Of a stretch of 36,521 nucleotides of DNA, positions 25,631 through 25,741 are shown piece by piece. Numbering within the stretch: position 1 is the stretch's first letter; each line of letters begins with the position of its first letter. Made by a program: the position numbers and the translations under genes. Source of the DNA: a virus (lineage: Duplodnaviria; Heunggongvirae; Uroviricota; Caudoviricetes); IMG/VR virus record IMGVR_UViG_2778261065_000031, positions 1-36,521 of that record; one strand, given 5' to 3'. The notes below the pieces were generated by a model. The model was not told the DNA's origin. It made no database searches and was given only the letters and a program-made list of their open reading frames with translations.

Positions 25631-25741
25631 ATGCCCTCCATAGTAACCATAACGCAATAATACGATATGTACTTTTAGAATGCAAACAAAAAATACATCT
25701 TGTGCATGGATGATTTTAGTACAGAGCGTAATAATAAGGGT
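25631..25741. promoter_or_regulatory. OR/pR/pRM divergent operator-promoter region
   Basis: 111-bp cro-cI intergenic region with 15-bp dyads AATAC-N5-GTACT (25659-25673) and AGTAC-N5-GTAAT (25708-25722). Confidence 0.6.

Follow-up and report, generated by a model that had tools for sequence, protein, structure and literature searches.

The cro-cI region and its genes

The window, that is the whole stretch of viral DNA analysed (36,521 nucleotides; IMG/VR record IMGVR_UViG_2778261065_000031), carries a divergent pair of regulatory genes. cI is on the plus strand at 25748–26401 and encodes 217 amino acids from the ATG at 25748 (an alternative ATG is at 25742), and cro is on the minus strand at 25415–25630 and encodes a 71 amino acid protein with an HTH_3 domain (E = 4e-12). 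Downstream of cro are cII, O and a gene for a DnaB-type helicase. The cI product has an HTH_3 domain (E = 8e-11) followed by a Peptidase_S24 domain (E = 9e-29), and its C-terminal domain matches the lambda repressor structure 3bdn with E = 2e-96. Over the helix-turn-helix the N-terminal domain of cI and Cro are 35% identical (E = 6e-13) and, by this similarity, are paralogous. Their recognition helices, TQGGIGHW in cI and TQGAIGHW in Cro, are near-identical, as would be expected if both proteins read the same operators.

The cI protein is a mosaic of an N-terminal domain of the VT2-Sakai/ST64T family and a lambda-like S24 domain (residues about 83–217), the latter with few substitutions with respect to lambda, for instance SDCAF where lambda has SDSAF.

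Dyad sites at OR and OL

Three dyads lie in the cro-cI intergenic region (25631–25747), between the divergent genes, and three more are at pL. They are termed OR1 to OR3 and OL1 to OL3 here. OR1, AATACgatatGTACT (AGTACatatcGTATT on the cro strand), is at 25659–25673, just where the initial annotation had it. The weaker middle site reported there, AATACatcttGTGCA, is also present; it is at 25692–25706, has a degenerate right half and is the counterpart of OR2 in the VT2-Sakai operator set considered below. The third site, OR3 (AGTACagagcGTAAT), is a real dyad, though it had been assigned to 25708–25722, which reads GGATGATTTTAGTAC instead. Its true position is 25718–25732, so that the earlier coordinates had slipped by 10 bases and an interval closing at 25722 stops midway through OR3. 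That the same half-sites recur at pL, as claimed, is borne out by three sites within 26481–26554: OL1 at 26540–26554 (AGTACacatcGTACT), a perfect dyad with 0 mismatches to AGTAC-N5-GTACT, OL2 at 26515–26529 (AGAACattttGTATT), and OL3 at 26481–26495 (AATACaaagcGTTAT), which with 3 mismatches to the same dyad is the weakest site.

With the six sites in one orientation the consensus is A-R-T-A-C-R-N3-Y-G-T-A-Y-T, a 15-bp sequence that is the core within the 17-mers of the literature. The AC and GT are invariant across the six; at the sixth position one arm always has a purine and the other a pyrimidine. The centres of OR1 and OR2 are 33 bp apart and those of OR2 and OR3 26 bp; at OL the corresponding distances are 25 bp and then 34 bp. 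OR1 is 881 bp from OL1, with pL directly after cI. In lambda the operator centres at OR are 23–24 bp apart. The sequence at which an OR2 with lambda-like spacing would be found (about 25 bp from OR1, near 25684–25698) was read directly and has no dyad.

Promoters overlapped by the sites

The promoter reading into cro, pR, is on the minus strand at 25657–25686, with TTGCAT (25685–25680) and TATTAT (25662–25657) separated by a 17-bp spacer (a consensus scan gives it as TTTGCA-18-TATTAT). Its counterpart on the plus strand at 26528–26556 has TTGACT, a 17-bp spacer and TACTAT and reads into nutL and N; it is taken to be pL because a boxA, a boxB hairpin and the N gene come after it. OR1 extends over the pR spacer and −10, OL1 is within the spacer and −10 of pL, and OL2 overlaps the pL −35 by two bases. 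The register of OR1 in pR is that of OL1 in pL: AGTAC ends the spacer, and GTAYT together with the next two bases makes the −10.

A putative pRM on the plus strand at 25706–25734 would read into cI, with ATGGAT (25706–25711), a 17-bp spacer and TAATAA (25729–25734). It was not called in the consensus promoter scan because its −35 is weak. OR3 covers its spacer and −10, and OR2 abuts its −35. At pR, pL and putative pRM alike, the −10 hexamer consists of bases 2–5 of a half-site and two flanking bases. This shared register, the weak −35 and the annotation of a related phage, AP005153, make it likely that pRM is at OR3, in which case its start would fall at about 25741–25742, at the first cI ATG. 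While the overlap of sites with the core elements is clear for pR, the overlap with pRM goes with the inferred promoter. OR2 is 6 bp upstream of the pR −35, whereas in lambda OR2 is over it.

There are two in-frame ATGs at the start of cI, 25742 (MKMKWYE...) and 25748 (MKWYE...). A transcript from putative pRM would be leaderless, as in lambda, and the second ATG could make use of AAGG at 25737–25740 when transcripts are longer (pRE-type). Annotation of the cI start is inconsistent among records: ON470594 has the second ATG, AP005153 an upstream alternative start and VT2-Sakai a truncated one.

Distal to pL on the plus strand, a boxA-like sequence of candidate nutL at 26603–26615 (GCTCTTTAAACAA) is followed by a boxB-like hairpin at 26617–26630 (GTCGA-ACAC-TCGAC), and then by the N gene (26747–27019), whose product has an arginine-rich N-terminus with the stretch GTAASRRRARRANL. 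The nutR candidate, on the minus strand at 25403–25377, has the boxA GCTCTTTGTAACAA and then a hairpin, GGAC-ATTC-GTCC. TACG comes after the hairpin in both nut candidates, the boxB stems of the two differ in sequence, and both loops are of 4 nt compared with the 5 nt of lambda boxB. Between the cI stop codon and OL3, a G+C-rich hairpin at 26432–26453 (AACCCGAC...GTCGGGTT), with T-runs on both strands, is likely to be a bidirectional intrinsic terminator that ends cI transcripts. There are further hairpins in the cro-cII interval (25312–25329 on the minus strand, and 25408–25422). One, TATGCGTTTCCACGCATA, immediately precedes cII and is a candidate for tR1; the second, CCGCTTAATAAGCGG, overlaps the cro stop codon.

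Occurrence in relation to chance

Across the whole window, AGTAC-N5-GTACT at up to 2 mismatches is found 10 times compared with 7.2 expected, so there is no enrichment; the matches are, however, clustered. The significance of the operators comes from this clustering, an independent matrix and conservation, rather than from the window-wide count at up to 2 mismatches. When every 5-mer dyad with a 0–12 bp spacer was enumerated without bias across both regulatory regions (296 bp together), the top patterns, T-runs aside, were AATAC/AGTAC-N5 and, in the same register, GTACA-N3-TGTAC, for which five of the ten matches in the window are inside the 296 bp. When both regions were shuffled with dinucleotide composition kept, 8 of 500 shuffles gave any dyad with at least 3 non-overlapping sites at up to 1 mismatch.

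A position weight matrix was made from the six published VT2-Sakai 17-mers only and is hence independent of the window. Among the approximately 36,500 positions of the 36.5 kb, it ranks the six sites 1–5 and 7 (OL1 1, OR1 2, OL2 3, OL3 4, OR3 5, OR2 7), the score of OR2 being no better than that of one intragenic chance match at 672–688. This match, TAATTCCATTTGTATTT, is inside a 639-aa ORF (1–1920, minus strand) and was not accepted as an extra operator. AGTACggaaaGTACA at 33281–33295, with 1 mismatch, was likewise taken as chance; it is inside ORF 32958–33473.

Natural variation in OR and OL

A scan of IMG/VR with Cro yielded 209 relatives, of which 80 loci were kept, and Cro is 100% identical in all 80. 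Together with two annotated relatives (L001 and L002) and the window, the kept loci comprise 37 distinct variants of the cro-cI intergenic region. When these are aligned, one of the 30 half-site columns is variable, compared with 5 of 15 in the spacers and 31 of 68 elsewhere in the intergenic region. The difference between the half-sites (1/30) and the remaining intergenic columns (36/83) is significant (Fisher's exact p = 2.3e-5). The sole variable half-site column is in OR3, where a G/A alternation switches between the allowed forms AGTAC and AATAC. The half-sites of OR1 are invariant, as are both halves of OR2, while the OR2 spacer and the flanking A-run vary.

The spacing of OR2 and OR3 is 26 bp in 37 of 37 variants. 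That of the OR1 and OR2 centres is 31 bp in 1 variant, 32 bp in 18, 33 bp in 16 and 34 bp in 2, because the A-run between the pR −35 and OR2 (25674–25691) changes length. Such variability argues against strict helical phasing of OR1 and OR2 and fits poorly with cooperativity between them in the style of lambda.

In the OL region too (28 variants), the half-sites are conserved and the spacers and inter-operator DNA are variable. The AATACAAA of OL3 is invariant. The GTATT half of OL2 is near-invariant (one variant has GTATC), and the other half is AGAAC, ACAAC, GCAAC or AGAGC. The conservation of OL1 is partly circular, OL1 having been used to find the OL region. Among variants OR1 and OL1 are 875 to 2448 bp apart, depending on the cargo that separates cI from pL. 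Because the right halves of OR1, OR3 and OL1 also serve as −10 hexamers, constraint on the promoters could account for some of their conservation.

The VT2-Sakai immunity group

Six operators of phage VT2-Sakai are tabulated by Sedhom and Solomon 2023 (Table S1, PMC10742460), and the six sites of the window correspond to them one to one, at the same positions and with 11 of 12 half-sites identical. OR1 (AAGTACATATTGTATTT in VT2-Sakai) and OL1 (TAGTACGATATGTACTT) each differ by a single spacer base (atatc in the window versus atatt for OR1, acatc versus atatc for OL1), and OR2 (ATGCACAATGTGTATTT) and OL2 (CAATACAATTTGTTCTA) also differ in spacer bases only. The core of OR3 (TATTACGCTCTGTACTG) is identical, and OL3 (TACAACGCTTTGTATTT) differs at one half-site base. 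The OR1–OR2 distance is 33 bp in the window and 32 bp in VT2-Sakai.

VT2-Sakai (Sp5) is one of an immunity group that includes the Stx1 converting phage AP005153, Stx2 II, Nil2, 2851, 1717 and YYZ-2008. The N-terminal domain of cI is 95.2% identical to that of VT2-Sakai and 96.4% identical to those of AP005153, 1717 and YYZ-2008. Judged by its repressor DNA-binding domain, its Cro and its operators, which are the same, the window phage is of the VT2-Sakai (Sp5) immunity type. However, its closest relatives over the whole region are not Stx phages but P22-like Lederbergvirus phages. Identity over the region is 99% with E. coli Lederbergvirus phages, vB_EcoP-683R2 among them, and about 93% with many Stx phages (Nil2, 2851, 1717, YYZ-2008, Stx2 II and AP005153). 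The Stx phages have 0.7–1.6 kb inserted between cI and pL, and with these cargo genes their OR1 and OL1 are about 2.3 kb apart, in contrast to the 881 bp of the window, which is without a rex-like or other cargo gene there.

The AP005153 record has three 17-bp 'putative operator' features (1859–1875, 1891–1907 and 1917–1933 of the locus). With an offset of 23,800 these are 25659–25675, 25691–25707 and 25717–25733 of the window and coincide with OR1, OR2 and OR3. The same record has a 'putative major rightward promoter' over the pR stretch and a 'putative maintenance promoter' over that of putative pRM.

Operators of this immunity type have already been described, by Fattah et al. 2000 according to later authors, and are annotated in GenBank (AP005153, AP005154). 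For how VT2-Sakai compares with lambda, PMC10742460 and the earlier paper that it follows, PMC9803871, refer to Fattah et al. 2000 (Genes Genet Syst 75:223); the site sequences themselves are said in both to come from the NCBI database. In PMC10742460 the one repressor assayed on the VT2-Sakai sites, by EMSA, was lambda CI, with a micromolar apparent Kd. A full-text literature search with the operator sequences themselves gave no matches, and no published footprinting or EMSA experiment that used the CI or Cro of this immunity type turned up in the papers searched, a set that did not extend to Fattah et al. 2000 and Sato et al. 2003. Published footprints of repressors on Stx-phage operators are for other immunity types, those of 933W, H-19B and BAA2326. 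These have the same kind of lambdoid switch and come from the same ecological group of phages, but their repressors are unrelated. H-19B (Shi and Friedman 2001) was considered as a precedent and set aside: its cI and Cro lack meaningful similarity to the window proteins, with no significant match to their N-terminal regions. The operators of 933W and BAA2326 were also set aside, the repressors and operator sequences being different (Sp5 CI and 933W CI are reported to be 19.1% identical).

Operators of more distant relatives

The initial annotation had suggested a comparison with phages sharing this repressor N-terminal domain, and the outcome supports the operator reading. In four phages whose cI N-terminal domains are 49–54% identical to that of the window, g341c and ST64T of Salmonella, H2 of Vibrio and Midgardsormr38 of Erwinia, the cI-cro interval has in each case three NNTAC-N5-GTNNN sites, spaced by 32–34 bp and then by exactly 26 bp. 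In all four phages the middle site has a degenerate right half and is at the same position. The outer half-site bases track the recognition helix: A[A/G]TAC goes with TQGxIGHW, [T/G/A]ATAC with TKGAVSHW and ATTAC with SQSAIAHW. In the g341c record two of the sites are annotated as 'putative repressor-binding site'. The C-terminal domains of the four repressors are 42–80% identical to that of the window cI, and the geometry therefore follows the N-terminal domain together with the layout of the promoters.

Given their different outer half-site bases and recognition-helix residues, g341c/epsilon34, ST64T (phage L type), H2 and Midgardsormr38 are presumably of different immunity specificities from the window phage. 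ST64T merits separate mention. Downstream of its c2 (2229–2298 of its locus, L085) there are three sites, CATACacataGTATT, AGTACattttGTATT and again AGTACattttGTATT, whose half-sites are those of the window, and it shares the helix TQGAIGHW with the window Cro, though the cI N-terminal domains are only 54% identical. Since half-sites and helix are the same, the ST64T and window immunity types may cross-react.

With lambda the window shares the divergent cI/cro arrangement, three OR and three OL operators, the overlap of sites with pR, pL and putative pRM, a near-identical autocleaving S24 C-terminal domain and the order pL–nutL–N. The DNA-binding domain is another one, however, and so is the operator sequence (that of lambda is TATCACCGCCAGTGGTA; PMC10742460).

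Are all six dyads operators?

The dyads might be mere promoter elements, with −10-like TAYTAT sequences and A/T-rich spacers giving rise to apparent symmetry as a by-product of AT-rich regulatory DNA. In keeping with this, the −10 hexamers of pR, pL and putative pRM do lie within GTATT+AT, GTACT+AT and GTAAT+AA, and, as noted, the motif at up to 2 mismatches is not enriched across the window. However, the promoter-distal AGTAC halves are invariant inside 17-bp spacers, where sequence is normally unconstrained, OR2 and OL3 are conserved without overlapping any −10, and the conserved GTATT half of OL2 overlaps just two bases of the pL −35. Further points against it are that phages at about 50% divergence show the three-site geometry again, their half-sites changing in step with the recognition helix, and that few of the shuffles (8/500) gave such dyads. 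A purely promoter origin of the repeats is accordingly considered extremely improbable.

It could also be that only OR1, OR3, OL1 and OL2 are true operators, with OR2 and OL3 non-functional look-alikes and the switch a two-site one. The rank of OR2, seventh and below an intragenic chance match, and the 3 mismatches of OL3 are in its favour, and the Stx phage 933W has been reported to have only two OL sites. Set against these are the invariance of the OR2 halves in the 37 variants, while the adjacent A-run and the spacer of OR2 itself vary, the invariance of AATACAAA in OL3, and the presence of a degenerate middle site 26 bp from OR3 in five of five relatives (VT2-Sakai and the four distant phages). 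Cooperative filling of weak sites is, moreover, the norm in lambda. A switch with just two sites on each side seems very unlikely.

The reading of the dyads as repressor operators, first proposed in the initial annotation, is supported by the divergent cro and cI, the promoter overlap, the half-site conservation and the match to the operators of VT2-Sakai and AP005153. From this comparative evidence, the dyads between cI and cro and those at pL are very probably the three-part right and left repressor-binding operators of a lambdoid immunity region of VT2-Sakai (Sp5) type.

How the switch would work

The working of the switch can be drawn by analogy with those of lambda, 434 and P22. RNA polymerase would be kept from pR and pL by CI dimers bound at OR1 and at OL1/OL2, and lysogeny thereby maintained. 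CI at the weak OR2, whose centre is at about −42 from the pRM start, would contact polymerase and activate pRM with its poor −35. OR3, over the pRM −10, would on the same analogy mediate negative autoregulation by CI and be the target of Cro in shutting off cI. Self-cleavage at the S24 domain, stimulated by RecA, would lift repression and induce the prophage.

Pairwise cooperativity is to be expected, because the C-terminal domain of cI is lambda-like, and perhaps there is also OL–OR looping over the 881 bp. That domain evolved in lambda with operators spaced by 23–24 bp. Here it is joined to spacings of 33/26 and 25/34 bp, and for this reason the cooperative pairs are perhaps unlike those of lambda. 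The OR spacing pattern is itself conserved from E. coli to Vibrio phages. One arrangement would be pairing of OR2 with OR3 and of OL1 with OL2, at 25–26 bp, with OR1 bound alone or via a three-turn contact, and with formation of mixed oligomers with lambda CI; this is a speculative proposal and on balance a rather unlikely one. If it were true, the altered pairing would change the logic of pRM autoregulation, and mixed oligomers with lambda CI could underlie the reported cross-immunity between lambda and VT2-Sakai.

Significance

For the window the value of the analysis is purely annotative: pR, pL, putative pRM and the OR and OL sites are fixed in position, and the phage is assigned to the VT2-Sakai immunity group. 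More broadly, no footprint of this widespread switch with the repressor that belongs to it appears to have been made, and the operator spacing is non-lambda despite a cooperativity domain of lambda type. Both the choice between lysis and lysogeny and the specificity of immunity are determined by these operators in a prophage group that is very common in E. coli (its Cro is encoded on 209 IMG/VR stretches). Among its members are the Stx1 and Stx2 phages of O157:H7, whose toxin production is driven by de-repression.
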